Positions 13,175 through 26,961 of a DNA stretch of 64,000 nucleotides are shown here, piece by piece. Made by a program: the position numbers and the translations under genes. Numbering within the stretch: the stretch's first letter is position 1; every line of letters starts with the position of its first letter. Origin of the DNA: a virus; IMG/VR virus record IMGVR_UViG_3300034349_000008, one strand, 5' to 3'. A model generated the notes under the pieces. The model was not told where the DNA came from, searched no databases, and saw only the letters and a list, made by a program, of their open reading frames with translations.

Positions 13175-13529
13175 GACTCTTAACATTCTGGTGATTATTC
13201 TTACAACACTACTTATTGCATCTTACATGTCAGGTAAATCTGACAGAGAAGAACTTAGAGTAGTTAGTGATAAGTTGGTAACTCATGTTAGACTCAATGA
13301 AAGTTTGAGTGAACAGAACTTACTTCTACTTGACGAAATTAAGAATAAACCTGTTGAGTATATAAAGATCACCAAGGAAGTTGAAAAGGAAATATGTAAT
13401 GGTGTAGTTAAACAAACATTGATTAACGAATTACCATCTAAACCATCAAAGAAGGATGTTATCAATGAAGAGACTACTGCTGACATTGATGATCGTCTGC
13501 CTGACAATTTGCTCAAGCTGCTCAAGTAA
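13146..13529 (+). CDS. Inner-membrane spanin subunit (Rz-like)
   Basis: GTG start after AAGGAG. N-terminal TMD ILVIILTTLLIASYM, then a charged coiled region. Position after the holin. Confidence 0.65.
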   Translation: MNPLATLKSKTLNILVIILTTLLIASYMSGKSDREELRVVSDKLVTHVRLNESLSEQNLLLLDEIKNKPVEYIKITKEVEKEICNGVVKQTLINELPSKPSKKDVINEETTADIDDRLPDNLLKLLK

Positions 13530-13752
13530 GCCACCAGAGAAGATTGTAGAGACGATATACCAAAAGCAATACATTCCATTGGACTTGCTGAAAGTAAGCT
13601 GTATAGAGCAACCAGCGGGCGAGACAGTACGTAGTCTTGCTAGTTCATGGGTGAACAACACAACCTGTCTACGAGCACATCAAATATTGATCGAAGGCAT
13701 AATTAAAAACTATACAGAACAAGGGACGGTTAACGATGAGCACACCAAGTGA
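13465..13752 (+). CDS. Outer-membrane spanin subunit (Rz1-like), overlapping the Rz-like gene
   Basis: Starts in an alternative frame inside the 3' end of the Rz-like gene. MKRLLLTLMIVCLTICSSCSSKPP looks like a signal sequence with candidate lipoylation Cys. The lipobox is not canonical. Confidence 0.55.
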   Translation: MKRLLLTLMIVCLTICSSCSSKPPEKIVETIYQKQYIPLDLLKVSCIEQPAGETVRSLASSWVNNTTCLRAHQILIEGIIKNYTEQGTVNDEHTK

Positions 13753-14050
13753 CGGCGGTAAATTACAGGAACTGATTGGTAAGTTTGGCGGTTGGGCGGG
13801 GTTGGCATTGATTTCACTTGCTGCTTTCACATACCAAGGTGATAAGACAAATATCAATACATCGATTGCTAATGCTGAGAAGGGTATCGCTGCTAACCAA
13901 CGAGCGATTAGTCGATTGCAAGAAGGGAAAGTAAGCAGAGAAGAGTTTAAAAACGTACAAGAGCAATGGATTCGTGAGACGCAGGGTCTACGTCAAGACC
14001 TTCGTGACTTGGCAAGTGTTCTACGTGTAGATGTAAAAGGTACAAAGTAA
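13736..14050 (+). CDS. Membrane protein with coiled-coil tail, last gene of the lysis cluster (104 aa)
   Basis: TMD WAGLALISLAAFTY followed by a charged helical region. Overlaps the Rz1-like stop. Followed by a terminator. Confidence 0.55.
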   Translation: MSTPSDGGKLQELIGKFGGWAGLALISLAAFTYQGDKTNINTSIANAEKGIAANQRAISRLQEGKVSREEFKNVQEQWIRETQGLRQDLRDLASVLRVDVKGTK

Positions 14051-14064
14051 GCGAACACAAGTAA

Positions 14065-14096
14065 GCCCCGGACCTTTATTGGCTCGGGGCTTTTTT
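14065..14096. terminator. Bidirectional hairpin terminator between convergent late and leftward operons
   Basis: GCCCCG 14065-70 pairs with CGGGGC 14085-90, followed by TTTTTT. Confidence 0.7.
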
Positions 14097-14104
14097 CGTG
14101 CTTG

Positions 14105-14233
14105 TTATTTACAGGAAAGTTGTCGTTGCCTAACTGCTTCATTCGCAATTCTTGCTGCTGTATCCGTTGCTTTATCTGCACGAATTGCTGCGATGTAAAC
14201 CTTTTCCCAGAATTCTACTTCATAGTTATTCAT
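14105..14233 (-). CDS. Hypothetical small protein (42 aa)
   Basis: Hand translation MNNYEVEFWEKVYIAAIRADK... ATGA overlap with ORF 14230..14472. Length is a multiple of 3. Confidence 0.4.
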   Translation of the reverse strand: MNNYEVEFWEKVYIAAIRADKATDTAARIANEAVRQRQLSCK

Positions 14234-14472
14234 TTGAAATACTCCTCAAGAGTTGCATCCATAATTTTATCATACAAATGATGACCGGGGAACAAACCAT
14301 CTTGACGTAGACGTTCATCACAACGAGATTTGATCAAGTCAAATGCATTCTCTTCACCCATGTTCTCACGAACTTTATCAGAGCAATCCCAGTGACATTT
14401 AAGCAGACCATTAAAGACTTGCTGACCAGTGATCATTGGTTCTTTACAACCGGGACACATTACGAGTTCCAT
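14230..14472 (-). CDS. Hypothetical Cys-rich protein (80 aa)
   Basis: Track ORF. MCPGCKEP and KCHWDC suggest metal binding. Confidence 0.5.
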   Translation of the reverse strand: MELVMCPGCKEPMITGQQVFNGLLKCHWDCSDKVRENMGEENAFDLIKSRCDERLRQDGLFPGHHLYDKIMDATLEEYFK

Positions 14473-14484
14473 TAAACATTCTCC

Positions 14485-14685
14485 TTAATTATTATACCAG
14501 TGAACATGAGTTGCACCTTCTGGTGGGTAATCAGACCACACACCATAGCTATAACTATAGTGAGACTCAGTTCCATAATAACCATTACCATCATCTGGAA
14601 TGAACGCACCAATCTCAACGCATCCATCAAATTCATGAATGGGCATCAAGTCAGCATATTCATCTCGTTTTTGATTAAAAATCAT
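14485..14685 (-). CDS. Hypothetical protein (66 aa)
   Basis: Track ORF, co-oriented and overlapping the neighbour by 4 nt. Confidence 0.5.
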   Translation of the reverse strand: MIFNQKRDEYADLMPIHEFDGCVEIGAFIPDDGNGYYGTESHYSYSYGVWSDYPPEGATHVHWYNN

Positions 14686-14864
14686 TCTGTTCGTTTCACC
14701 TCATGCTCAAATGTACCAATAGGATACAATACTTGTTTCTTACAAGAAACTTCGCAGATTGTCGGTGTGCTTGATCTTAATTGAGGAACATAAATATGAG
14801 ATGCGATAGCGCCTCCTGCTATCATACCAATGATCAAACCAATTGCGACGTATACGAGTCTCAT
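14682..14864 (-). CDS. Small membrane protein (60 aa)
   Basis: Track ORF. N-terminal TMD LVYVAIGLIIGMIAGGAIA. 4-nt overlaps on both sides. Confidence 0.5.
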   Translation of the reverse strand: MRLVYVAIGLIIGMIAGGAIASHIYVPQLRSSTPTICEVSCKKQVLYPIGTFEHEVKRTE

Positions 14865-15064
14865 TGCAAAACCAAAATGATTTTGTTTGCTAGCTCCAGC
14901 GCTTGCTCACGATTCAAATATGTATGCATATGACTGAACGGTCCAGTTGAAAGGTTAACTTCCAATGCAACACCGTGTGGGCCATTATCGATTTCAAAAT
15001 TTACTTCAACATCATACTGACCTTGAACGGTAAGACTTACATCTTTTTGGATATGACCTTTCAT
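14861..15064 (-). CDS. Hypothetical protein (67 aa)
   Basis: Track ORF coupled to its neighbours. Confidence 0.5.
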   Translation of the reverse strand: MKGHIQKDVSLTVQGQYDVEVNFEIDNGPHGVALEVNLSTGPFSHMHTYLNREQALELANKIILVLQ

Positions 15065-15330
15065 TACACAATCTCCTCAACAAATTCCAGAAAAGTTTCC
15101 ATATCATCAGCAACACAGTATTGTGCTAGTCCACCCCAACCTTCCTCTTTGAATACATCAGAGCCATTCAACCAAACAGCGCCTGAAAACTGACCATAAT
15201 TCTCTTTAAGTTCAACAACATCACCAACTTCTGCGCCATAAAAGTCAACAGTATCACCGTTAGAGAGTTTTAAAATTTTGAATTTACGCATCATGTTCTC
15301 CATATTCTTTATCAATTGCATCTTGTACAA
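15064..15330 (-). CDS. Hypothetical protein (up to 88 aa, start uncertain)
   Basis: Track ORF. Several in-frame Met codons near the stop of the upstream ORF (about 15286-15301). Confidence 0.5.
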   Translation of the reverse strand: MYKMQLIKNMENMMRKFKILKLSNGDTVDFYGAEVGDVVELKENYGQFSGAVWLNGSDVFKEEGWGGLAQYCVADDMETFLEFVEEIV

Positions 15331-15571
15331 TTAGTGTGATTTGATAGTCATTCTTTTCGATGAAGTATCGTAGTTCATCTTCATTGAACATCCACCAACC
15401 GATTGAGTCTTTGCCTTCGGCATGCGAAACTCGAAATATTGTTTCTCGGTATCCGTAGAACTCGGTATCACAAGCAGCATTTGGATCAAACGTTCCCTTG
15501 ACATGGTAGTCCTCGATGTCTGTTACATTGAATCTAGTGTATTCTGAAAACTTCAGATTGTAAAGTTCCAA
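15284..15571 (-). CDS. Hypothetical protein (95 aa, TTG start)
   Basis: Track ORF. AAGGAG 8 nt upstream of TTG. Confidence 0.5.
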   Translation of the reverse strand: MELYNLKFSEYTRFNVTDIEDYHVKGTFDPNAACDTEFYGYRETIFRVSHAEGKDSIGWWMFNEDELRYFIEKNDYQITLIVQDAIDKEYGEHDA

Positions 15572-15678
15572 TCGTCAATACTCCTTAAATTATCCCGTAA
15601 GTAAATTGCCTGTTTAACTGAATTGCAAATCATACAGTGCCAACCATCTTTGGTCAACACCCAAACTTCATATTTCAT
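15553..15678 (-). CDS. Hypothetical small protein (41 aa)
   Basis: Hand translation MKYEVWVLTKDGWHCMICNSVKQ... ATGA overlap with ORF 15675..15932. Confidence 0.35.
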   Translation of the reverse strand: MKYEVWVLTKDGWHCMICNSVKQAIYLRDNLRSIDDWNFTI

Positions 15679-15932
15679 CCCCATCTACCTTTTTGCCAGT
15701 ATTCACGACCACGAAGCTTGAATGACTTTTCAACAACGATAGATTCAGGAACAACCTGAACTATTTCATCAATGATCATAAAGTCAATGTCTTTATCTTG
15801 AATCTCTTCAAATTCACATTGGTTAATGATTTCAAGCCTGTCACCATACTTCTCACGAAGTAAATCAAATAACCGAAGTTGACGCTGTTGTAAGTCACCA
15901 ACAACTAATAAAATAAACTTTTCATCAGTCAT
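15675..15932 (-). CDS. Hypothetical acidic protein (85 aa)
   Basis: Track ORF. Overlaps the helicase stop by 8 nt. Confidence 0.55.
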   Translation of the reverse strand: MTDEKFILLVVGDLQQRQLRLFDLLREKYGDRLEIINQCEFEEIQDKDIDFMIIDEIVQVVPESIVVEKSFKLRGREYWQKGRWG

Positions 15933-17535
15933 TCAAAATATCCTTAAGTTCGCGATCCATTTGACGTACTTGCTTTCCCATATATTCATCGAAAGCATCT
16001 TCAATTTTTGCATTGTTTTTGAATCGGTTAATCATATGTTGAACTGTGCCATTATAACCCAACAACTTCTTGGTACGAGTCAGAGCAACATACAACAGGT
16101 TGCGTTCCATATCAGGCAAACCAACCCACTCACCCTGCTGATTATACGGACTTGGGAAGTCATCTGCAAGGATTACAACATCGAACTCACGTCCTTTTGA
16201 CTTGTGTGCAGTTGTCAGTGTTACGTCTGGGTCAGCATAGTTTTTATGCTTAGACAAGACACCGAGTACTTTGTAAACAGTACCATTTTCAACCATGTTG
16301 TAAACACGTAGTAACTCACCCTGTACAGCTTGTGCCTCAACTTCGCATTCTTTCCATGTAGTAAACTGAACAAGACTTTCGTGTTTAACCTTAGTCATGT
16401 TACCGCGTTGAAGCTCAATTGCCGAATCAAGAAGCTTTGTGAAGTCAGAAACATCAATCTCAAGATTGACCTTCTTACCTTGTTCCATCAGATCAACTGC
16501 TTCAAGAATCAAAGCACCGTTTGTACGGAACAACATTGTGTACTGTTCATCCCAGACATTTGCTGGCAGTTCGTACTTAGGCATTACCTGAGTAGACAGT
16601 TTCTCCCAACCTTTTACGGAAGTGATCTTTGTACCATCAAAGGCGAGTACAGCATCTGCCAAGTCACCAATCTCTTGACCGAAACGAAAGCTTTTAGACA
16701 GATTGACTTCAGGCCAATCCAACTCAAGCATTGCGTTCATTGCACCACGCCACGAGTAAATGTTCTGGTAACCATCACCAACAGCATACAGTCTGCATTT
16801 GTCTTGTTGACGCAAGAAGATATCCAATACAACTGCGTTAACATCTTGACATTCATCAAGATACAGGACTTCATAACGAGACAGATCAGGTTTCGACAAC
16901 TGATACAGTTTCAGATATGTATCATGTGTTGCCAGAACATCAGATCGAAGGTCAGTACGCAGACGCCACAGCTTTTGTGCACAGCTAAGAACAAGGTAAC
17001 GGAATGCACGCATACTGTTCTGATCTTTCAGAAGAATCTGATCACAAGGACTTGTGGAAACGTGCTTATAACCAAGTTCATCGTCAGCAGATTGCTCATA
17101 CTTGGCAACTGTTTCTTTAATGGCTACACCAACACCGCCAGCTTTCATCTTACGAGATTCACGCTCACCTTGAATCATATAAGCGAAGTCACCAGTTTTA
17201 AAATACTTAGCAATCTCTGTACCAGTACCAGCTACGTTTTTGTAAGGACCAACTGGACGCTTCAGTTTCTTCTGAAGTTGTGCACCGAAGCTTGCATAAG
17301 CAAGACTGTGAACAGTACGACATTCAACCCAGCTAGGAAAGCGTCCCTTAGCTTCGTCAGCCAACGATTTGTTAAAGGTAAGCATGATGCTAGGGACAAC
17401 GTGTTCTTCAGCCACCATGCACAGTGTAGACGTTTTGGCAGCGCCTGCATATGCAGAGATTTTGAGTGCACGGTGAATCTTGGACATTGATACTACGTTG
17501 TTCTGTTCATCAGTTGGTACGATTACATTGCTCAT
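15925..17535 (-). CDS. UvrD/Rep/PcrA-family (SF1A) DNA helicase
   Basis: Motifs DECQD (II), GDGYQNIYSWRGA (III), TAHKSKGREFDVV and YVALTRTKKLL (V/VI). Walker A reads AYAGAAKTS, which is non-canonical. Confidence 0.85.
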   Translation of the reverse strand: MSNVIVPTDEQNNVVSMSKIHRALKISAYAGAAKTSTLCMVAEEHVVPSIMLTFNKSLADEAKGRFPSWVECRTVHSLAYASFGAQLQKKLKRPVGPYKNVAGTGTEIAKYFKTGDFAYMIQGERESRKMKAGGVGVAIKETVAKYEQSADDELGYKHVSTSPCDQILLKDQNSMRAFRYLVLSCAQKLWRLRTDLRSDVLATHDTYLKLYQLSKPDLSRYEVLYLDECQDVNAVVLDIFLRQQDKCRLYAVGDGYQNIYSWRGAMNAMLELDWPEVNLSKSFRFGQEIGDLADAVLAFDGTKITSVKGWEKLSTQVMPKYELPANVWDEQYTMLFRTNGALILEAVDLMEQGKKVNLEIDVSDFTKLLDSAIELQRGNMTKVKHESLVQFTTWKECEVEAQAVQGELLRVYNMVENGTVYKVLGVLSKHKNYADPDVTLTTAHKSKGREFDVVILADDFPSPYNQQGEWVGLPDMERNLLYVALTRTKKLLGYNGTVQHMINRFKNNAKIEDAFDEYMGKQVRQMDRELKDILND

Positions 17536-17941: not shown

Positions 17942-18122
17942 CCAGTGCTTCAGCTTCTGTTGTGAATGTTGCTACTACACGTGTACGTTTCTGATAATCA
18001 CCGCCACCATTACCGTAGCTTGGATCATACCACTCGGTGTAGTCTTCAACAAGGTCGTAAACAATGGTATCACTACCAAACAAACGAGTTTTCAATCTGG
18101 CTTTTATGGCGAATGTTGTCAT
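17907..18122 (-). CDS. Hypothetical protein (71 aa)
   Basis: Internal ATG of track ORF 17907..18197, placed 1 nt after the upstream stop and preceded by GAGGA. Confidence 0.5.
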   Translation of the reverse strand: MTTFAIKARLKTRLFGSDTIVYDLVEDYTEWYDPSYGNGGGDYQKRTRVVATFTTEAEALVACQKFNKYNG

Positions 18123-18123
18123 T

Positions 18124-18348
18124 TCATTTGTCCTCAGACATTGCAACAGCAAGTGTATCAGCATCAACAACCATAATTGTTTCTGAACAGTAGTCACAAC
18201 CTAAAATGAAAACACATTTCACATCACTGGTATTTAGTCTACCCTGAACAATCGATCCCGTAACTGTCTGATGTGTTCCCCAAGATAAACGACTCTCACC
18301 ACATTCAGGACATTCTATCTTACTATACATGATCTGACTAAGTTTCAT
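18124..18348 (-). CDS. Zinc-ribbon protein (74 aa)
   Basis: CPECGE ... GCDYCSE four-Cys pattern. Confidence 0.55.
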   Translation of the reverse strand: MKLSQIMYSKIECPECGESRLSWGTHQTVTGSIVQGRLNTSDVKCVFILGCDYCSETIMVVDADTLAVAMSEDK

Positions 18349-18349
18349 T

Positions 18350-18583
18350 TCAATTTCCCCGGTTAACTGTCACACAAAGGTACATCTCATAGTCTGACAT
18401 GTCATGGCAGCAAGAGCAACCATCAACCTTGATAAATTCAGGGGAGATTGTCACTTCGTCAATCGTGCAGCAACCGAAGTGATTATTTGATTGTAGAAGA
18501 AGTTCTTCCATATTGATAGTACCGAAATTACCAATCTCAATATAAAGCTGATTACTGTCGCTTACTGGCTTACTCATTTCCAA
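18350..18583 (-). CDS. Hypothetical Cys-rich protein (77 aa)
   Basis: Track ORF. GCCTID ... GCSCCHD cluster. Confidence 0.5.
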   Translation of the reverse strand: MEMSKPVSDSNQLYIEIGNFGTINMEELLLQSNNHFGCCTIDEVTISPEFIKVDGCSCCHDMSDYEMYLCVTVNRGN

Positions 18584-18717
18584 TCTCCTTCTTGTGGGAA
18601 GAGTTGTTTGATTTCACGATGTGCATATTCACGTGCTGCGTTGCGCATCCATTCTTCACCTTTTACTGGCTTTGTTAAGATGTACATCAAGATGAATACT
18701 GGTAGCTCTACGTTCAT
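18574..18717 (-). CDS. Hypothetical protein (47 aa)
   Basis: Internal ATG of track ORF 18574..18804 that forms an ATGA overlap with the stop of 18714..18902. Confidence 0.4.
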   Translation of the reverse strand: MNVELPVFILMYILTKPVKGEEWMRNAAREYAHREIKQLFPQEGDWK

Positions 18718-18902
18718 TTTGTATCTCCGCTGATCAATGTAATAGGTCCAAGCAGTGTGAACAGAAGTCCCCAAAACGCACATGTTGAGTAAGTATTCAT
18801 CCAATCGATGTTACCCTTCAGGAAATAAGCAATGATCAACAATGTAATTCCAAATAAGAACATTATAACACTTAGTGCTTTAGCAATGTTTACCGCTTTC
18901 AT
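18714..18902 (-). CDS. Two-TMD membrane protein, first gene of the leftward operon (62 aa)
   Basis: MKAVNIAKALSVIMFLFGITLLIIAYF..FWGLLFTLLGPITLI. GGAGA 7 nt upstream of ATG 18902. The longer track ORF to 19046 has no support. Confidence 0.55.
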   Translation of the reverse strand: MKAVNIAKALSVIMFLFGITLLIIAYFLKGNIDWMNTYSTCAFWGLLFTLLGPITLISGDTK

Positions 18903-18930
18903 TTTGGTGTCTCCATTTAAGATGTGGCCA

Positions 18931-18959
18931 ATCCTACCAGATGATTCGCTGGTGTCAAG
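18931..18959 (-). promoter_or_regulatory. Leftward promoter (TTGACA-17-TAGGAT)
   Basis: Reverse complement of 18954-59 is TTGACA and of 18931-36 is TAGGAT. Confidence 0.45.
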
Positions 18960-18963
18960 GGTC

Positions 18964-18992
18964 TTGACAGAAAAAGATTTCCTCTGTAGAAT
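18964..18992 (+). promoter_or_regulatory. Rightward promoter (TTGACA-17-TAGAAT, start region GGGCAACC)
   Basis: TTGACA 18964-69, TAGAAT 18987-92. Same TGTAGAATGGGC family as the promoters at 58262 and 61375. Confidence 0.5.
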
Positions 18993-19329
18993 GGGCAACC
19001 TTGACGTGATGAACGTCTCGCACTGAGAGAGAAATGTCATAACCACTCACCGACTCAGTGTTAAAGGCAAGAAGAAAGCAGGCCAACATAACGTGGAAGT
19101 GATCCCTAACGGGAGCTGGTGCAGCGTTGCGGGTGTCGTCAATGACATTTGTGCACCACGGGAGAAAGGGGTTGACACCTTATCCTATCTCGTGTACCTT
19201 GTGTACATGCCTGATGAATCGGGGTGCTAGAATCGGTGAGCATGAAGATAACTCCTTGGTTTCCGTTTGTGAAACCCTTTAGGGGAAGTCTATCTGTACT
19301 ATCTCAATGAGCATATTAGGAGAAGCTTT

Positions 19330-19545
19330 ATGAAAGCAAGTGATGTATTAAAAGTACAAGTGAAGTGGTTGAAAGAAAGATGTAAATCAATCAAGAAAGA
19401 GATTGACGAAAACAACAAGAATAAGTCAATATGGTACGAAGACTACTATGGTGATAAGCTGAAAGCAGCACTTGATGAATGTGTAGCTATCAAGATTAGC
19501 ACTGAGAAATATATGAAGAAACTGAGGCATCAAGAAAATGAGTAA
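19330..19545 (+). CDS. Hypothetical coiled-coil protein (71 aa)
   Basis: Track ORF. AGGAG 8 nt upstream. First rightward gene. Confidence 0.6.
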
Positions 19546-19822
19546 TGTGTTAAGACAAATGTTCCAAACGATTCAAGCATTGAGTGCTGTAGCTTTGGAG
19601 AGTCATGGTGGCGTCAGTGAAGCAACGCAAAATCTTGAGTATCAAATTGCTTTGCTAGAAGATTTGTTTAAACCAGTTGAAATTACTGCTGATATGGTTA
19701 AAGAGTTGCGTTCATTGACAGGTGAGGGTATGATGTCTTGCCACAAGGCATTAAAGCATTGTTCTGGTGATATGCAAAAAGCAGTTGACTATCTAAGAAG
19801 TTCTGGTACACTCTGTATCTAA
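19538..19822 (+). CDS. Protein with EF-Ts N-terminal (UBA-like) domain look-alike (94 aa)
   Basis: [42 protein letters not shown] aligns with remembered E. coli EF-Ts [42 protein letters not shown]. Confidence 0.6.
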
Positions 19823-19835
19823 TTTAAACATAAAG

Positions 19836-20033
19836 GTGATGTTCATGTTCAGCTTGATATTTTGTCATGTGCTTCTTGTACTATTCAGTGTTTCGATGAT
19901 TGTAGGTTGTGGTTTGATCGCTCGTGGTGTAATCTACTCAAAAATCCTGTCATTGGTTCTAGGTATCTTGACAGTGTGGCAATCACAATATATGATTAGT
20001 GAAATGGTAATTGTGATCAACGAACTTTCGTAA
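19836..20033 (+). CDS. Small two-TMD membrane protein (about 64 aa)
   Basis: Track ORF. Hydrophobic FSLIFCHVLLVLFSVSMIVGCGLI and ILSLVLGILTVW. Confidence 0.5.
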   Translation: MMFMFSLIFCHVLLVLFSVSMIVGCGLIARGVIYSKILSLVLGILTVWQSQYMISEMVIVINELS

Positions 20034-20048
20034 TGAGGAGAAACAAAA

Positions 20049-20390
20049 GTGGCATATCGTAAGCTTGAAATTGGTGATGATGTAAAGATTGTAAAGTGTC
20101 AAGAATGGTCTGGTCAATTCGGTGAAGTTGTAGGTATCGAAGGTCAATACATTAAGGTTCGTTTCAGTTCGTGGCGTGGCGAACCTTCTATGACTCATTA
20201 CTTCACAGAAGATAAGCTTCTTGTTTCTACTGGTAACCCATATCGTAATTACTCATATGAACCAGATGATGACTTTGAAGATTTCGAAGTGCAGACACAA
20301 TATAATGACCAAACGATTCTACAAGCTTTGATTGAACGAGTTTCGAAATTGGAAAAAGAATTGCTTAACATGAAGAGTCAGGCTGCGTAG
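20049..20390 (+). CDS. Hypothetical protein with N-terminal SH3/KOW-like signature (113 aa, GTG start)
   Basis: GAGGAG upstream. LEIGDDVKIVK..GEVVGIEGQYIKVRF pattern. Confidence 0.55.
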   Translation: MAYRKLEIGDDVKIVKCQEWSGQFGEVVGIEGQYIKVRFSSWRGEPSMTHYFTEDKLLVSTGNPYRNYSYEPDDDFEDFEVQTQYNDQTILQALIERVSKLEKELLNMKSQAA

Positions 20391-20418
20391 AATGACAATC
20401 ACACCAAGGGGATATGTA

Positions 20419-20550
20419 ATGCCGTTCGATTACACTGGTTACTACTCTGTTACAGAGCTTGAGCTTCGTCGTCAACAGGAACGTAATGCGCAACGTGAGC
20501 ATGATCTTGAAAAACTTGCTCGTATGAAACGTTTGGAGATTGCAAGTTGA
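20419..20550 (+). CDS. Hypothetical small protein (43 aa)
   Basis: Hand translation MPFDYTGYYSVTELELRRQQERNAQ... Its stop overlaps the TTG start of the next gene. Confidence 0.4.
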   Translation: MPFDYTGYYSVTELELRRQQERNAQREHDLEKLARMKRLEIAS

Positions 20551-20864
20551 AAAAGTTTCTGGTAGTATTGCTGACATCACTTGCTTTATCTGGTTGTGAG
20601 CAGCGTGAAGTGTTTAGTGAAAAGCAGTTGACAATGACAGTTGAGAGTGTCAAACTCACCAGCAAGTCGAACAGCAAGGTTACTCTGCGAGATGATGCAA
20701 GTGGTCAGGTTTACTCTGACAATCGTCTCAGTTGCAACAGAACTCGTGCTAGTCGTGTTGTGATCGGTAGTAAATGGGTTGTAACTGAGGTTACATATGT
20801 GTATCCTGAAAGCAGGCGCTACACAAGTGAACTGGTTGGAACTCGTGGAATTTGCCCACAGTAA
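20547..20864 (+). CDS. Lipoprotein (105 aa, TTG start)
   Basis: MKKFLVVLLTSLALSGCEQ is a signal peptide with canonical lipobox LSGC. GGAG upstream. Confidence 0.7.
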   Translation: MKKFLVVLLTSLALSGCEQREVFSEKQLTMTVESVKLTSKSNSKVTLRDDASGQVYSDNRLSCNRTRASRVVIGSKWVVTEVTYVYPESRRYTSELVGTRGICPQ

Positions 20865-20883
20865 AAATAGTTGAAAATAATGC

Positions 20884-20912
20884 TTGACCACGGTGACCAA
20901 CCTCTGTATAAT
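20884..20912 (+). promoter_or_regulatory. Near-consensus sigma70 promoter (TTGACC-17-TATAAT)
   Basis: TTGACC 20884-89, TATAAT 20907-12. Predicted start lies a few nt before the tRNA-like gene. Confidence 0.65.
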
Positions 20913-20923
20913 GGGCACCACAA

Positions 20924-21025
20924 GACGCGGTGATGGAATTGGTAAACATTGGGGAGCAAGCACTTAACGTTAGTGCCCATACCGCTGGCTTAATTGCCTT
21001 GAGGGTTCGACTCCCTCCTGCGTCA
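20924..21025 (+). tRNA. Atypical 102-nt tRNA-like RNA gene (anticodon not assignable, no encoded CCA)
   Basis: 7-bp acceptor stem GACGCGG/CTGCGTC, U8, D-loop with GG. Canonical T-arm GAGGG-TTCGACT-CCCTC, discriminator A. The central part is about 11 nt too long, with hairpins GCACT-TAACGTT-AGTGC and GGC-TTAATT-GCC. Confidence 0.5.
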
Positions 21026-21052
21026 CTCTTATTTTAAACCAAGGAGAAACAA

Positions 21053-21955
21053 ATGAAACTGACTAACATTTTGAAAGCATCTGCACTGGCTCTTGCTGCA
21101 ACCCTGATGGTTGGCTGTGGTGAACGAGTTGAAGTTCCACCGGGTTTTGTTGGTAAGATCATGACCAAAGATGGTTATCAGGAAGGCATGATTCCAACTT
21201 CGAAACTGCGTCTTCCTGCTTGCTTGAATTACTGTGATCGTCTGGTTGTACTGGATACAACTGACAAGAGCTATGTTGAACCGATGAAGATTTTCATCCC
21301 ATCCGACAAGCTGGTTGTTGATGTTGATCTGCGTGCTACTCTGTCGGTTGATCCACAAAAGGCTGAGGCTCTGTTCAACAAACTACCACAAGCACCGGTT
21401 AACGATTACTATTCGGTAATCAATGGTCAGGCAGTATTTAGTACTTATGGTCAACAGGTTCTGCAAGCTGAAGTTCGTGCATATCTGACTCAGTACACCA
21501 TTTCGGAAATCTCTTCGAGTGGTGAGAAGATCAACGCTGACATTCAGGTTCTTCTTTCCAAGGTTATGAATGAGCGCACTCCATTTACTGTTCGTTATGC
21601 TGGTTTGACGAATATTAAGTACCCTGAAATCATCACTCAGGCTCAAGAGAATAGTGCTAAGCGTCGTGAGATGATTGCACAAGAAGAAGCACAACTTGAG
21701 GTAAGCAAAGTTCAACTGTCTCGTGAACTGCAAGAAGCTAAGATGCAGCGTGCAATCGACAAAGAGAAAGCTGAGACTGAAGCACAAGCACAGATGGTAT
21801 TGGCTAATGCTGTAGATACACGCTCTCTGCGAATCAAAGAGCTTGAGATTCAAAAGATTCTGGCTGAGAAGTGGGATGGTGGTATGCCACAAACTATCAT
21901 GGGTAATGCTAGCGGTATTCCTCAAATGATTATGGACATGCGTGGTAGCAAGTAA
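21053..21955 (+). CDS. SPFH/Band-7 (prohibitin-like) domain lipoprotein (300 aa)
   Basis: Signal peptide with lipobox LMVGCG. SPFH-like core followed by a long Glu/Ala/Gln-rich coiled coil (EEAQLEVSKVQLSRELQEAKMQRAIDKEKAETEAQAQ). AAGGAG upstream. Confidence 0.65.
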   Translation: MKLTNILKASALALAATLMVGCGERVEVPPGFVGKIMTKDGYQEGMIPTSKLRLPACLNYCDRLVVLDTTDKSYVEPMKIFIPSDKLVVDVDLRATLSVDPQKAEALFNKLPQAPVNDYYSVINGQAVFSTYGQQVLQAEVRAYLTQYTISEISSSGEKINADIQVLLSKVMNERTPFTVRYAGLTNIKYPEIITQAQENSAKRREMIAQEEAQLEVSKVQLSRELQEAKMQRAIDKEKAETEAQAQMVLANAVDTRSLRIKELEIQKILAEKWDGGMPQTIMGNASGIPQMIMDMRGSK

Positions 21956-22006
21956 TTGACTTTGGGCTACTGACTATATGCGGTAGCCCTTAATTAAGGA
22001 GATAAA

Positions 22007-22195
22007 ATGAAAGTTGGAACTGTTCTAATTGCAAAGAATAACACTGACGATATGGATGCTGGTGAGGCGTTTGTTGTAAAAAGTGTTAGTGACTTTCACT
22101 TGTATACAAATAAAGAAGATGTTGGTTGCTTCACACTTGAACCAGACCGTAATGGTTTGAGTTGGGAAACATTTTTCACAGTCAAGGAGTTGTAA
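22007..22195 (+). CDS. Hypothetical small protein, SH3-like family candidate (62 aa)
   Basis: Track ORF. AAGGAG upstream. Confidence 0.55.
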   Translation: MKVGTVLIAKNNTDDMDAGEAFVVKSVSDFHLYTNKEDVGCFTLEPDRNGLSWETFFTVKEL

Positions 22196-22539
22196 TGGTT
22201 TTCCTGATTAACTCACTACCTTTCTTCATTGTTATTCTGATGGGATTGGTTATCCGATATGCTGTACCATCGAAAGTTGGTAAAGTGATTTTTGCTGGAC
22301 TTACTGTTCTTATGTTGGTTGTGTATTTTCAAATCCAACCTAGTTACATGCCGAAGGGAACTGTGAAAACACTCCCGAACGCTGAGTTCAGAACAGTCGA
22401 TAAACCAGTTTCTGATCTAGTTCCAAAACCAAAGTCACCTGAGCAGTATGATACTGAGCGTAATGCTGCGATGGATGATATTGATCGTAAGCTTGAAGAA
22501 CAAATTATTAAACATCAAATGAAATATTATAAGGAGTAA
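22195..22539 (+). CDS. Two-TMD membrane protein (114 aa)
   Basis: ATG 22195 overlaps the upstream stop (TAATG) and follows AAGGAG. MVFLINSLPFFIVILMGLVI and VIFAGLTVLMLVVYF. Confidence 0.6.
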   Translation: MVFLINSLPFFIVILMGLVIRYAVPSKVGKVIFAGLTVLMLVVYFQIQPSYMPKGTVKTLPNAEFRTVDKPVSDLVPKPKSPEQYDTERNAAMDDIDRKLEEQIIKHQMKYYKE

Positions 22540-22543
22540 AAAG

Positions 22544-22672
22544 ATGTCCAAAGTATTTTACGAGCAAGCAAACCCACAAGGCACCACCCAGACTGCCGGT
22601 CACAAAGCTTTCAAAGTAGCTGCACCGAAGAGTCGTAAACGCGGTCGCGGTTACATCCAAGTAAGTCAGTAA
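22544..22672 (+). CDS. Small basic protein with RGR (AT-hook-like) motif (42 aa)
   Basis: Hand translation MSKVFYEQANPQGTTQTAGHKAFKVAAPKSRKRGRGYIQVSQ. AAGGAG 7 nt upstream. A strong terminator follows. Confidence 0.5.
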   Translation: MSKVFYEQANPQGTTQTAGHKAFKVAAPKSRKRGRGYIQVSQ

Positions 22673-22678
22673 TAGAGA

Positions 22679-22703
22679 GCCCCGCCATAGAGCGGGGCTT
22701 TTT
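22679..22703 (+). terminator. Rho-independent terminator
   Basis: GCCCCGC/GCGGGGC 7-bp stem followed by TTTTT. Confidence 0.8.
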
Positions 22704-22721
22704 AATGCCTGTGAAAAGGTG

Positions 22722-22750
22722 TTGACAGACATGAACACTCGGTGTAGAAT
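22722..22750 (+). promoter_or_regulatory. Sigma70 promoter (TTGACA-17-TAGAAT)
   Basis: TTGACA 22722-27, TAGAAT 22745-50. Confidence 0.6.
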
Positions 22751-22781
22751 GGACGCTCAATCAATGAGAGGAGAATCAAAG

Positions 22782-23105
22782 GTGAAAAAGTTTGTAATAG
22801 GTGCTGCATTTGCTATTTTCGGATTGTCTATGGTCAATGCTCAAGCTGTTGAGAATAGCTTCTGCAATATGGAATATGAAAAGGCTTACAACATTATGAA
22901 ATTGCGTCAATATGGTACTGAAAAGGCTGTTGTTGAATCTGTGATCTACACTGAATCCGGTCAGATCATGGTTGAACTTGCTTATGACAAGGAAATTGTT
23001 CCAGACCGAGTGAAACCTATTGTCATGAAGACATTCGCAAACCGTTTCAAAATCATCTGTGAGCAGTCGTTCGCTGAATCCAAGCAGAAAAGTATTGCAT
23101 TTTAA
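22782..23105 (+). CDS. Secreted/periplasmic protein (107 aa, GTG start)
   Basis: GAGGAG upstream of GTG. MKKFVIGAAFAIFGLSMVNAQA signal peptide with AQA cleavage motif. Confidence 0.6.
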   Translation: MKKFVIGAAFAIFGLSMVNAQAVENSFCNMEYEKAYNIMKLRQYGTEKAVVESVIYTESGQIMVELAYDKEIVPDRVKPIVMKTFANRFKIICEQSFAESKQKSIAF

Positions 23106-23150
23106 TCTGGTAGGTGTATAGTACCTGAAACCAAACACTGGAATCACAGC

Positions 23151-23333
23151 ATGAACACTGAAGAAATCATCGAAGCGTTTGAGGAATGGTACGTAGGAGA
23201 GTACGTGATCCGTTCTGGGGCGTATGGTCGTGCTAGTCGCAACCTGACAAAGCATGACGGTCAGTACATCTCAGATCACGCAGCAGAGTGCTTCAAGGTG
23301 TGGTGTGCAGCTATCAAGAGGATGCGTAAATGA
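23151..23333 (+). CDS. Hypothetical protein (60 aa)
   Basis: Track ORF. No clear SD. Confidence 0.45.
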   Translation: MNTEEIIEAFEEWYVGEYVIRSGAYGRASRNLTKHDGQYISDHAAECFKVWCAAIKRMRK

Positions 23334-25053: not shown

Positions 25054-26961
25054 TTGAGTTTGATTGAAAAAGTAATTAAGCATTACATGCCTGACTATGA
25101 TGGGAGTGAAAAGATTTGTTGTCCGTTTCACAGTGAGAATACCGCGTCATTCAACATCTATCATCATCAGCATTCGTTCTACTGCTACGGTTGTGGTGCA
25201 AAGAGTACACCGATTGATTTCGTAATGTATGCCGAAGAGATGGACGAAGAAACAGAATTTGCAAAAGGTCGTGACTTGACAATGCAAATTCTAGGTATGA
25301 CATACGAGAAGTATCAAGAGGAGAGAAAGAAAGTGACGGATGTAGCTGTAATGATGAATGATTGCCTTCCGGCAATGACGGACGAAGAAGTAAAGGCTTT
25401 CATCCAAAGTGCTCATCGTGAAATCAATGGTAAGAAAGTAAGTGGCTATGCTGGTCTTGGTTATCGTGGGATTAAAGATGAATATCTGAAGTTCTTCGGT
25501 CACCTGACTAAGAAGGATGATCAAGGTAATGTAATCAGTCGTCACTATCCTGAAACAAATACCAAGGGTAAGCTTGCTGGTTATAAATGCCGTAACCATC
25601 CTAAAGACTTCCGATATGGTAATGTCGGTAACACTGGTGGTAAGAACCAACTAAGTGGTCAGGTTAAGTATTCTGGTTACAACAAGTACATCTTGATTGT
25701 TGGTGGTGAAGAAGATAAAGTTGCAGCATACCAGATGTTCGAAGAGAATCGGATTAAGGCTGGTGGTAACATTGCTCCTGTTCACGTAGTATCCCCAACT
25801 TGTGGTGAGAATAGTGCAGTTAAGCAAATTGCAGCACAGTATTCGTTCTTCGACATGTATGACCAAATCATTATTGGTATGGATAATGATGAGGCTGGTA
25901 AGCGTGCAGCAGAAGCAATTGCGGCAGTATTACCAAAAGAGAAAGTTAAGGTCGCTGTCTGGACTGGTAAAGATGCAAACAAGATGTTGGAAGACGGTAA
26001 GGCTAGTGTATTTGTCCGTGACTTCTACAATGCTAAACCACTGATTGCATCTGGTATCAAGGAAAGTACAGGTTCGATGGACTCGGTTCGTGAAGAACTT
26101 ATGCGTCCACGTATTCCACTTCCACCAGAATGGAAAGATGTACAAGATGCAATGAAAGGTGGTATTCGACAAGGTTCTATCGTCAATATCATTGGTGATA
26201 CATCGGTTGGTAAGTCTACTCACATTAACGGACTCAACTACTTCTGGATGTTTAACGCACCACAGAAAGTTGGGGTTGTTTCTCTTGAGATGACTGAAGG
26301 TCAATACACACTTGACTTGTTGTCTATTCACCTTGAGAAGAACTTGGCGTGGATTGGTGAAGGTGCGGATATTCTTGAGTATCTGGAACGTCCTGAAGTT
26401 CAAGCTCTGTATGACAACTTACTTGTTGATGATTCCGGTCAACCACGTTATTCGATTCTTGATGAGCGTGATGGTGATCTTAAGTTGCTGGAGCGACAAG
26501 TTGAGAAGTTGATTCACCAGTATGGTTGCAAGATCATTGTAATTGACGTACTGACTGACATTCTTCGTGGTTGCAATGGTGACATGCAAGAAGATCATAT
26601 GCGTTGGCAGAAACAGATTGTTAAGACAGGTGTTACAATTGTGAACATCTTGCACACACGTAAACCAGTTAACTCTGATGGTTCGTGGCGTAAAGCAACT
26701 GAGTATGATGCGTTTGGTAGTTCGACATTTGTACAGTCGGCTGCATACAACATCGTGATCAGTCGTGACAAGATGAACCCTGACCCAATCCTGAAGAACC
26801 TGACACATGTTGACATGCCGAAGTGTCGTGGTGGTGAGACTGGTGAAATCATGCAATTGATTTATGATGTCGAAACCCGTAACGTTATGAACTACAACAA
26901 TTGGCTTGCAAAACAAGCGAGCATGCCTCATAATCAGCAAGATTCTGATCCGGGGTTTTAA
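25054..26961 (+). CDS. Bifunctional DNA primase-helicase (T7 gp4-like)
   Basis: CHC2 zinc finger CCPFHSENTASF..CYGCGA. Toprim GGEEDK and GMDNDEAG. Walker A GDTSVGKST in a DnaB-like C-terminal half. TTG start after AAGGAG. Confidence 0.85.
   Translation: MSLIEKVIKHYMPDYDGSEKICCPFHSENTASFNIYHHQHSFYCYGCGAKSTPIDFVMYAEEMDEETEFAKGRDLTMQILGMTYEKYQEERKKVTDVAVMMNDCLPAMTDEEVKAFIQSAHREINGKKVSGYAGLGYRGIKDEYLKFFGHLTKKDDQGNVISRHYPETNTKGKLAGYKCRNHPKDFRYGNVGNTGGKNQLSGQVKYSGYNKYILIVGGEEDKVAAYQMFEENRIKAGGNIAPVHVVSPTCGENSAVKQIAAQYSFFDMYDQIIIGMDNDEAGKRAAEAIAAVLPKEKVKVAVWTGKDANKMLEDGKASVFVRDFYNAKPLIASGIKESTGSMDSVREELMRPRIPLPPEWKDVQDAMKGGIRQGSIVNIIGDTSVGKSTHINGLNYFWMFNAPQKVGVVSLEMTEGQYTLDLLSIHLEKNLAWIGEGADILEYLERPEVQALYDNLLVDDSGQPRYSILDERDGDLKLLERQVEKLIHQYGCKIIVIDVLTDILRGCNGDMQEDHMRWQKQIVKTGVTIVNILHTRKPVNSDGSWRKATEYDAFGSSTFVQSAAYNIVISRDKMNPDPILKNLTHVDMPKCRGGETGEIMQLIYDVETRNVMNYNNWLAKQASMPHNQQDSDPGF

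Follow-up and report, generated by a model that had tools for sequence, protein, structure and literature searches.

Why would a bacteriophage carry a fragment of a bacterial translation factor? The question is raised by a small gene in a 64,000-nucleotide stretch of viral DNA, IMG/VR record IMGVR_UViG_3300034349_000008 (hereafter the window, i.e., the whole stretch analysed). The gene lies at 19538..19822 on the + strand and encodes a protein of 94 amino acids (aa), with an ATG start, 94 codons and a TAA stop, which is included in the coordinates. A first-pass annotation, made from the letters of the DNA, had described the product as a copy of the N-terminal, EF-Tu-binding domain of the elongation factor EF-Ts, and the open reading frame (ORF) is indeed present and reads as it was quoted there. 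In the ORF list, the translation and the analyses described below, the protein comprises two modules. Residues 1–47 (19538..19678, +) form a family-specific helical hairpin, as delimited by an AlphaFold2 model and a profile search, and residues 48–92 (19679..19813, +) are a copy of the EF-Ts N-terminal (TS-N, or UBA-like) domain, equivalent to residues 2–46 of E. coli EF-Ts by sequence, profile and fold. The hairpin, the existence of a family in two unrelated contig groups and the accessory status of the gene were all absent from the first-pass annotation. The reading that we favor, with a probability of roughly 0.5, is that the 94-aa protein docks on EF-Tu as a non-catalytic mimic of EF-Ts, as its sequence and predicted structure suggest.

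Residues 48–92 align without gaps to residues 2–46 of E. coli EF-Ts (1efu_B), with 24 of the 45 positions identical and E = 3e-10 in a phmmer search of 177,635 PDB sequences, in which the further matches are also EF-Ts (Qbeta replicase fusions and the M. tuberculosis, T. thermophilus and mitochondrial proteins). This alignment bears out the nearly motif-for-motif resemblance that had been claimed, as well as the E. coli sequence that had been given for comparison. The expected match to EF-Ts or UBA profiles is likewise found. The NCBIfam model TIGR00116 (tsf) matches with E = 2.4e-13 and 49.9 bits over its positions 3–46 of 293 only, and since only these positions are present, the score is below the equivalog cutoff of 104.05 bits. 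The Pfam model EF-Ts_N (PF25025), which was built on mitochondrial EF-Ts, gives 21.1 bits and E = 3.1e-4, under its gathering score of 33.2. Across 45 members of the protein family described below, however, PF25025 matches 37 at E ≤ 0.01 (best 2.8e-6), whereas UBA matches 13, and a profile of the same 45 members finds EF-Ts in the PDB with E = 2.2e-15, compared with 3.5e-3 for the best non-EF-Ts match, a UBA protein. Both comparisons show that the domain belongs specifically with EF-Ts rather than with UBA domains in general. The signature L-R-x-x-T-G-x-G-M-M-x-C-x-K-A-L ... G-D ... A is kept.

The predicted structure agrees with this assignment. The AlphaFold2 model of the 94-aa protein (mean predicted local distance difference test score, pLDDT, 85.4; predicted template modeling score, pTM, 0.59) contains helices at residues 3–23, 28–43, 51–61, 65–74 and 79–88. 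The first two make up the hairpin (block pLDDT 79–88), and residues 51–88 are predicted to form a three-helix bundle (block pLDDT 85–94). In a Foldseek search of the PDB, 15 of the 16 best matches are EF-Ts N-domains, the exception being an archaeal NAC at rank 15. The superpositions on bacterial EF-Ts N-domains have a root-mean-square deviation of 0.6–2.0 Å over 41–45 residues, with 50–60% identity and a probability of 1.00, and are followed by a tail of generic UBA, NAC and CUE domains, of which the UBA domains also reach a probability of 1.00. Among predicted viral structures, Foldseek matches A0A345BRQ1, an unnamed viral protein of 85 aa, over the full length (E = 6e-5), and it also finds the "Elongation factor Ts-like protein" (59 aa) encoded by Sinorhizobium phage phiN3. 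The core with the TDFV motif (D80/F81) and subdomains N and C, the coiled coil and the C-terminal module of EF-Ts are absent, as the protein ends 2 residues past the N-domain; the earlier statement that the core and coiled coil are lacking is confirmed by the restricted match to the tsf model. Judged by sequence and model together, the 94-aa protein carries a true homologue of the EF-Ts N-domain and nothing of the catalytic core. PHROGs v4 has no family for the window protein (family-wide, the best is phrog_35727, with 6 of 45 members at E ≥ 8.5e-4), and PADLOC has no match for it.

A first search of 5.8 billion protein clusters returned only 10 relatives of the protein. A profile search extended this to approximately 45–50 clusters that match over the full length, are 88–119 aa long and share a conserved MS... 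start and the same architecture, followed by hundreds of lower-scoring matches that cover the C-terminal half only and are bacterial EF-Ts fragments. Nearly all family members come from metagenomes and are unnamed; the labels "Elongation factor Ts [compost metagenome]" and "phage-related protein" occur once each. Homologues down to 35% identity keep the length, the start, the two-module layout and invariant fold residues, a pattern by which the gene is judged to be real and selected. The identical 94-aa protein is found on four contigs, i.e., the window and contigs from three other metagenomic samples (SRR10968272, SRR10854863 and JGI 3300035210; L001, L002 and L003), which are 100% identical in DNA to window positions 19044–23303, 19141–21154 and 18106–19951, respectively. 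Thus, the same phage genotype recurs in independent datasets, although these stretches of 1.8–4.3 kb offer no differences on which to gauge selection.

These observations bear on the possibility that the gene is a functionless, decaying fragment of a host tsf gene, or a product of contamination or mis-assembly. Several "phage" records do hold whole bacterial tsf genes, e.g., that of Y1. However, the gene sits in a coherent phage genome and recurs unchanged in three other samples, it is flanked by phage genes and not by rpsB or pyrH, and the retention of length, start, layout and fold residues down to 35% identity is not what decay would leave. In addition, a scan with a 10-sequence family alignment found the two-module form in no bacterial genome among 185,579 species (one representative each) and returned only chromosomal full-length tsf. 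To our satisfaction, the conservation pattern refutes the functionless fragment, and we assign this possibility next to no weight.

The more important question is whether the domain has kept the surface with which EF-Ts binds EF-Tu. The EF-Ts N-domain binds helix D of the G-domain of EF-Tu, the most abundant translation factor, while subdomain C of EF-Ts contacts domain III of EF-Tu, and nucleotide release from EF-Tu needs the EF-Ts core (D80/F81 of the TDFV motif). Within the N-domain, R12, M19 and M20 are reportedly the positions at which Zhang, Yu and Spremulli (1998) introduced mutations. In the crystal structure of the M. tuberculosis EF-Tu/EF-Ts complex, the N-domain contacts described are hydrogen bonds from R13 to P114 and E155 of EF-Tu and salt bridges from K24 to D144 and D145. 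Three alanine mutants, R13A among them, disrupt the complex, whereas no disruption was reported for K24A and L21A (PMC9529903). Based on the alignments, the M. tuberculosis numbering equals that of E. coli plus 1 and the phage numbering equals that of E. coli plus 46, such that R58 of the phage protein corresponds to E. coli R12 and M. tuberculosis R13, M66 to M20 and L21, and H69 to K23 and K24.

Conservation was counted, in E. coli numbering, over the 45 family members and 72 bacterial EF-Ts N-termini. L11, G18, C22, L26 and A36 are present in 45/45 phage and 72/72 bacterial sequences, and G16 in 45/45 and 68/72. R12, T15 and A25 are each kept in 43/45 phage and 72/72 bacterial sequences. 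The two methionines are each found in 38 of the 45 phage proteins, compared with 72/72 (M19) and 71/72 (M20) of the bacterial ones, and K24 is found in 37/45 and 72/72. Thus, the contact residues R58, M65, M66 and K70 of the window protein are conserved in its family. Other positions depart from EF-Ts: position 17 is Glu in 41/45 and Asp in 3/45 phage proteins (bacteria, Ala in 58/72 and Glu in 6/72), position 21 is Ala, Ser or Cys in 43/45 (bacteria, Asp in 63/72), K23 is kept in 25/45 (His in the window protein; bacteria, 72/72), and E28 is changed to His or Gln. The hot-spot arginine and the Met-Met pair are therefore retained, but the interface with EF-Tu is not simply copied. That D21 is lost and K23 relaxed may mean either that constraints set by the remainder of EF-Ts have been lifted or that the surface has been re-tuned.

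One alternative is that the module was captured from tsf and re-purposed, so that it now binds some other host or phage partner and has kept EF-Ts-like residues mainly for folding. The surface departures at positions 17, 21, 23 and 28 fit this view, as does the range of partners bound by UBA-like three-helix bundles, which is echoed by the NAC, UBA and CUE domains in the Foldseek tail. Moreover, the domain is invariably joined to a hairpin seen nowhere else, which hints that the two together create a new, composite surface. However, the conserved R12, M19, M20 and K24 are solvent-facing contacts to EF-Tu that are not needed for the fold, E17 is also present in the EF-Ts of Pseudomonas, which does bind EF-Tu, and the match to EF-Ts is far stronger than to any other UBA. 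We therefore regard a re-purposed module as rather unlikely.

The glutamate at position 17 deserves a closer look. In the bacterial sample, E17 occurs only in EF-Ts of the Pseudomonas type (P0103 from P. savastanoi; P0062 and P0080). The EF-Ts proteins of the P. fluorescens, P. syringae and P. putida groups carry Glu at this position (TGEGMMDC), whereas Ala is the usual residue in bacteria and Leu is found in P. aeruginosa. A search for LRxxTG[ED]GMM across the genomes of all species gave, among its best 80 loci, 79 full-length tsf genes, almost all of Pseudomonas; this search is biased by its pattern and ranking, and we do not claim that E17 is exclusive to Pseudomonas. Since E17 occurs in the EF-Ts of Pseudomonas, the probable host genus, it does not conflict with binding to EF-Tu there, and its presence in the family suggests a Pseudomonas origin or an adaptation to Pseudomonas EF-Tu. 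Capture specifically from a Pseudomonas tsf gene was considered and not retained: E17 fits, yet the phage domain is 59% identical to the Pseudomonas EF-Ts N-domain, which exceeds the approximately 52–53% to E. coli but is no higher than the 61–67% to clostridial-type sequences. As overall identity is not highest to Pseudomonas, it does not single out a donor.

The N-terminal hairpin is confined to this family. A profile of residues 1–47 alone, run without word filter, retrieves only 15 proteins among 1.84 billion representatives, of which 14 are family members of 88–112 aa and the fifteenth is an unrelated, eukaryote-like tandem-repeat protein of 419 aa. Six of these matches were new to the family set, and all six were read: five have the EF-Ts-N module and the sixth is the 419-aa protein. 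An origin of the hairpin from the tsf locus, i.e., from the EF-Ts coiled coil, the EF-Ts C-terminal module, the S2 C-terminus or the rpsB–tsf spacer, was rejected: when 81 bacterial tsf loci, translated in all six frames, are searched with the hidden Markov model of the hairpin, nothing scores at E ≤ 10, and comparison of the hairpin with full-length EF-Ts gives an hhalign probability of 0.3%. The phmmer sub-alignments to EF-Ts residues 157–228 (1.6–2.4 bits) are noise, and PDB matches to the hairpin are only generic helical bundles. By these comparisons, the hairpin is specific to the family and invariably accompanied by an EF-Ts-N domain. Relatives without it are P0048, of 62 aa, as well as P0010 and P0028, both truncated at the N-terminus. 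At the other end of the protein, past the domain boundary (window 19814–19822), the family has short C-terminal tails that are conserved within subgroups (..SGTLCI or ..SGNICV, ..SGNISLTDSHW(G/R)(R/N) and ..SGNI(N/S)FCTDQNRPAIG), which may be an interaction or modification site.

The strict conservation of the two-module architecture would also suit an adaptor, in which the EF-Ts-N module recruits EF-Tu to a phage protein or nucleic acid that is bound by the hairpin, EF-Tu being used rather than blocked. EF-Tu has precedents as a structural subunit in Qbeta replicase, the entries of which are among the PDB matches above, and in Avs7, and one contig (L019, see below) has an E17/A21-type domain inside a 253-aa reading frame. 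The T4 capsid protein binds EF-Tu, and Qbeta replicase co-opts both EF-Tu and EF-Ts. However, no conserved neighbor gene offers itself as the partner, and the gene is dispensable in the close relatives SYP, phiPMW and pf16, which argues against a core role in replication or assembly. An adaptor is, in our estimate, decidedly improbable.

Under the favored docking on EF-Tu, the EF-Ts-N module would bind helix D of EF-Tu. The C-terminal domain of L7/L12 reportedly uses the same helix to recruit the ternary complex (work attributed to Wieden, 2001, and Kothe, 2004), such that the docked phage protein would compete with both EF-Ts and the L7/L12 C-terminal domain. Because helix D is shared and the core is needed for nucleotide release, a stand-alone N-domain should bind without exchange and compete with both; lacking the core, the phage protein cannot catalyze GDP/GTP exchange. 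The hairpin could add affinity or avidity, mediate oligomerization or bind a second partner. The pay-off for the phage would be control or shielding of EF-Tu soon after infection. Of the first-pass interpretation, the structural half is fully borne out by sequence, profile and fold, whereas the functional half, in which a free docking module would sequester, re-target or protect EF-Tu, is an inference.

Several considerations weigh against this docking model. First, the relaxed K23, the replaced D21 and the A17E change mean that the interface is not identical to that of EF-Ts and could be re-tuned to another partner. Second, the isolated N-domain is part of the EF-Ts interface only, as the core also binds EF-Tu, and its affinity may be low unless the hairpin helps. 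Third, the hairpin might pack on the binding face, in a model whose pTM is only 0.59. Fourth, binding to EF-Tu is predicted from sequence, profile and fold, and early timing is assumed from the position of the gene. Finally, the neighborhood gives no functional clue, since all neighbors in the window are ORFans, and an adjacency to the RNA ligase gene rtcB, described below, is confined to one lineage.

Other phages also carry short pieces that resemble EF-Ts. Ralstonia phage RSP15 (Ackermannviridae) has an unannotated 70-aa ORF that matches the tsf model with E = 7.4e-10 and lies at L103:4959-5171 (+), approximately 110782–110994 of NC_030948.1, within the replication module, where it is flanked by ORF136 and the SSB gene. 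It reads as a stand-alone EF-Ts-N-like domain (...GDIEQAF) with D21 and K23 kept, a degenerate TNET loop, a Cys-rich tail (CPHCGK) and no hairpin. Since it lacks the hairpin and retains D21 and K23, it is probably an independent capture of the EF-Ts domain. The metagenomic P0048, in contrast, has the TGEGMMAC loop of the family and may be a hairpin-less offshoot of it. A 53-kb IMG/VR contig (L019:9815-10576) has the E17/A21-type domain internal to its 253-aa reading frame, and three IMG/VR contigs of 88–98 kb (L020–L022) have, around position 10001, open frames of 68–92 codons from stop to stop, which share only helix 1, the loop and helix 2 (ITAEDVRKLREETGEGLMACKKIL; ITAExVRxLRxxTGEGMMACKK) before unrelated C-termini. 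The piece common to all these other phage copies is the segment with R12, M19/M20 and K23/K24, which is the pattern expected if selection acts on the element that would contact EF-Tu. Together, the copies suggest that stand-alone capture of the EF-Ts N-domain by phages is recurrent.

A separate set of "phage" records (Pseudomonas phage Y1, Salmonella, Acinetobacter MD-2021a, Staphylococcus, Enterococcus and Listeria) was set aside as a source of homologues. These match the EF-Ts-N half only and are taken as contaminated or mislabeled: in the Salmonella and Acinetobacter records the matched feature is annotated tsf, and OQ572403.1 ("UNVERIFIED: Pseudomonas phage Y1", L009), the one record inspected, contains a whole bacterial rpsB-tsf-pyrH locus. 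Such records would yield false "phage EF-Ts" matches in automated surveys.

Based on sequence comparison of the contigs, the gene is common to two unrelated contig groups, one of which is syntenic with phiPMW/SYP-like siphoviruses and the other tied to Pseudomonas phage pf16 via RtcB only. The first group, which includes the window protein, consists of 100–107-kb contigs with the synteny of the window, i.e., a helicase to the left, the divergent gap, small rightward genes, Band 7 and the primase-helicase. In the second group, on contigs of up to 163 kb, the hairpin reads ...NKMYETISAMGVVLNEV..NCHGR..., the C-terminal tail ..FCTDQNRPAIG is frequent, and the gene lies directly 3′ of that for the RNA ligase RtcB (L012/L013:4212-6303, L014:4777-6345 and L018:8194-10285; 4 nt past the RtcB stop in L014). 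This RtcB is 82–84% identical to that of pf16, a T4-like myovirus isolated on a P. putida strain also used for phiPMW. In pf16 the mini-gene is missing, an annotated anti-restriction gene follows RtcB, and the region is rearranged between these phages. The hosts of both groups are probably Pseudomonas of the putida/fluorescens type. As SYP, phiPMW and pf16 are all without the gene, it is an accessory gene. A functional link to RNA repair was considered and left as a weak hint only, given that RtcB adjoins the gene in one lineage (RtcBs 91–100% identical), that pf16 has RtcB without the gene and that the window, unlike L008, lacks an RNA ligase next to its helicase.

The RtcB neighborhood is also relevant to the idea that the protein is a decoy of EF-Ts itself, which would mimic the EF-Ts N-terminus and titrate a host toxin, sensor or protease that recognizes EF-Ts, with EF-Tu not being the target. 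The CdiA-CT tRNases of contact-dependent inhibition (CDI) depend on EF-Ts besides EF-Tu, the gene adjoins RtcB, a tRNA-repair ligase, in phages with a pf16-like RtcB, and pf16 has its anti-restriction gene at that position. However, the EF-Ts dependence of the toxins maps to the coiled-coil domain and not to the N-domain, and the hairpin has no similarity to the coiled coil. Furthermore, the RtcB linkage occurs in one lineage only, and our literature searches turned up no defense system that senses EF-Ts, nor are we aware of one. We consider such a decoy very unlikely.

If the protein does dock on EF-Tu, its biological role may lie in either of two directions, which appear equally possible. 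It could serve host takeover by tuning or throttling host translation, or it could serve counter-defense by blunting Lit, type IV Thoeris, Avs7 or EF-Tu/EF-Ts-dependent tRNases. EF-Tu is a hub of phage–host conflict, being cleaved by Lit and type IV Thoeris and incorporated by Avs7, and the CdiA-CT tRNases need both EF-Tu and EF-Ts. Counter-defense is attractive in view of these EF-Tu-centered defenses and tRNase toxins and of a sporadic accessory gene in variable regions, but the neighborhood evidence for it is weak and comes from one lineage. In its most novel form, the proposal would be that the family is a new class of counter-defense or takeover protein, in which a dead exchange-factor mimic caps helix D and thereby either shields EF-Tu from Lit-like or Thoeris-IV proteases, Avs7 or CDI-type tRNases, or throttles translation by blocking EF-Ts recycling and L7/L12 recruitment; this version seems to us distinctly unlikely.

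By encoding part of the exchange factor that serves EF-Tu, a phage could manipulate EF-Tu very directly. If helix D is bound, the 94-residue protein would be a natural inhibitor of, or probe for, the interactions of EF-Tu with EF-Ts and L12. It would also offer a candidate mechanism of anti-defense or host takeover in Pseudomonas, and it would exemplify the repeated capture of one host-factor domain by phages that are unrelated. Recurrent, independent capture of a 45-residue module by unrelated phages would, if true, mark helix D of EF-Tu as a general viral target. If EF-Tu is not bound, the protein would instead represent a housekeeping domain re-tooled after its capture. The domain itself is well known, and a few automated annotations already flag "EF-Ts-like" phage proteins, whereas there appears to be novelty in the two-module family with its unique hairpin, in its restriction to probable Pseudomonas phages of two unrelated contig groups, in the systematic departures from EF-Ts and in the evidence that capture is recurrent; literature searches found no paper describing or testing a phage EF-Ts-like protein.

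In the window, the gene is, as the first-pass annotation placed it, second in the gene order of a rightward operon. The first gene (19330..19545, +) encodes a 71-aa protein of no known family and, at its stop, runs 8 nt into the beginning of the 94-aa gene. It has no Pfam or PADLOC match, and since it is not kept as a neighbor in relatives, it is probably not a dedicated partner of the 94-aa protein. Pfam and PADLOC scans of the neighboring genes were likewise without a match, and none of these genes is a conserved partner. Upstream, a divergent non-coding gap of 283 bp (19047..19329) was read from the sequence between the rightward operon and a leftward one, which consists of small ORFs followed by a superfamily 1 (SF1) helicase at 15925–17535. 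The gap contains TTGACA at 19172–19177 and TGCTAGAAT at 19225–19233, and a consensus scan found strong sigma-70-like sites near it on both strands, e.g., 18964–18992 (+) with 11/12 matches, with site counts that are not above those in shuffled sequence. The divergent layout is the same in the relatives L008 and SYP. On the 3′ side of the gene lie a primase-helicase (25054–26961) and a DNA polymerase (27005–29248). Early expression of the 94-aa gene would fit its location, which adjoins a divergent promoter-like region and precedes these replication genes.

The window is part of a siphovirus genome, with genes for a lambda-J-like central tail fiber, tail fibers, the primase-helicase, a family-B-like polymerase, thymidylate synthase and ribonucleotide reductase, and with no tRNA genes within it. 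No close DNA relative was found among 50,697 phage records. By protein, the nearest cultured phage is vB_PpS_SYP (107 kb, host P. plecoglossicida), whose DNA polymerase is 75% identical, followed by phiPMW (103 kb, host P. putida PpG1) with 60%. The G+C content of the window, 41%, is no argument against a Pseudomonas host, because phiPMW has 45% compared with approximately 62% in its host. Approximately 2 kb downstream of the 94-aa gene, at 21053–21955 (+), lies a Band-7/SPFH (stomatin-like) lipoprotein gene whose product has a signal peptide and a lipobox (LMVGC) and shares 72–77% identity with its counterparts in Pseudomonas phages Boevelstad, 254 and SYP; such lipoproteins are found in 654 phage records, including Salmonella, Escherichia, Vibrio, Pseudomonas and Aeromonas phages, and the gene is syntenic throughout the relatives in the clade. 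In the leftward arm of L008, a relative, the gene just past the helicase encodes a PF09414 RNA ligase (L007/L008:1-307), whereas the same arm of the window (13500–15925) has only small ORFs of 60–95 aa and no RNA ligase beside the helicase. Thus, the accessory content of this arm differs between close relatives.

We note three comparisons with known systems. First, the bacterial EF-Ts N-domain (PF25025, PF00627; E. coli residues 1–54) has the same three-helix fold as the phage domain, with a root-mean-square deviation of 0.6–1.8 Å, is 53% identical to it over E. coli residues 2–46 and shares with it the EF-Tu contacts R12, M19, M20 and K24, whereas the phage copy differs in its hairpin, in A17E, in the replacement of D21 by Ala, Ser or Cys, in its relaxed K23 and in being phage-encoded. 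In contrast to full-length EF-Ts, the phage protein is without the core, the coiled coil and the C-terminal module, and thus cannot be an exchange factor. Second, the copies in phiN3 (59 aa), RSP15 (70 aa) and P0048 (62 aa) are likewise short and correspond to the EF-Ts N-domain only, but they lack the N-terminal hairpin of the window protein. Third, some systems are alike in function or by analogy. The L7/L12 C-terminal domain, which is said to bind the same helix D of EF-Tu and with which a free EF-Ts-N domain would be expected to compete, is a component of the ribosome, unlike the phage protein, and the likeness is functional, with no sequence relationship claimed. Qbeta replicase, Lit, type IV Thoeris, Avs7 and CdiA-CT also treat EF-Tu and EF-Ts as contested hubs. 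In those cases, foreign proteins of unrelated fold use or attack the host factors, whereas here the phage encodes a piece of the host factor itself, and the likeness is by analogy only.

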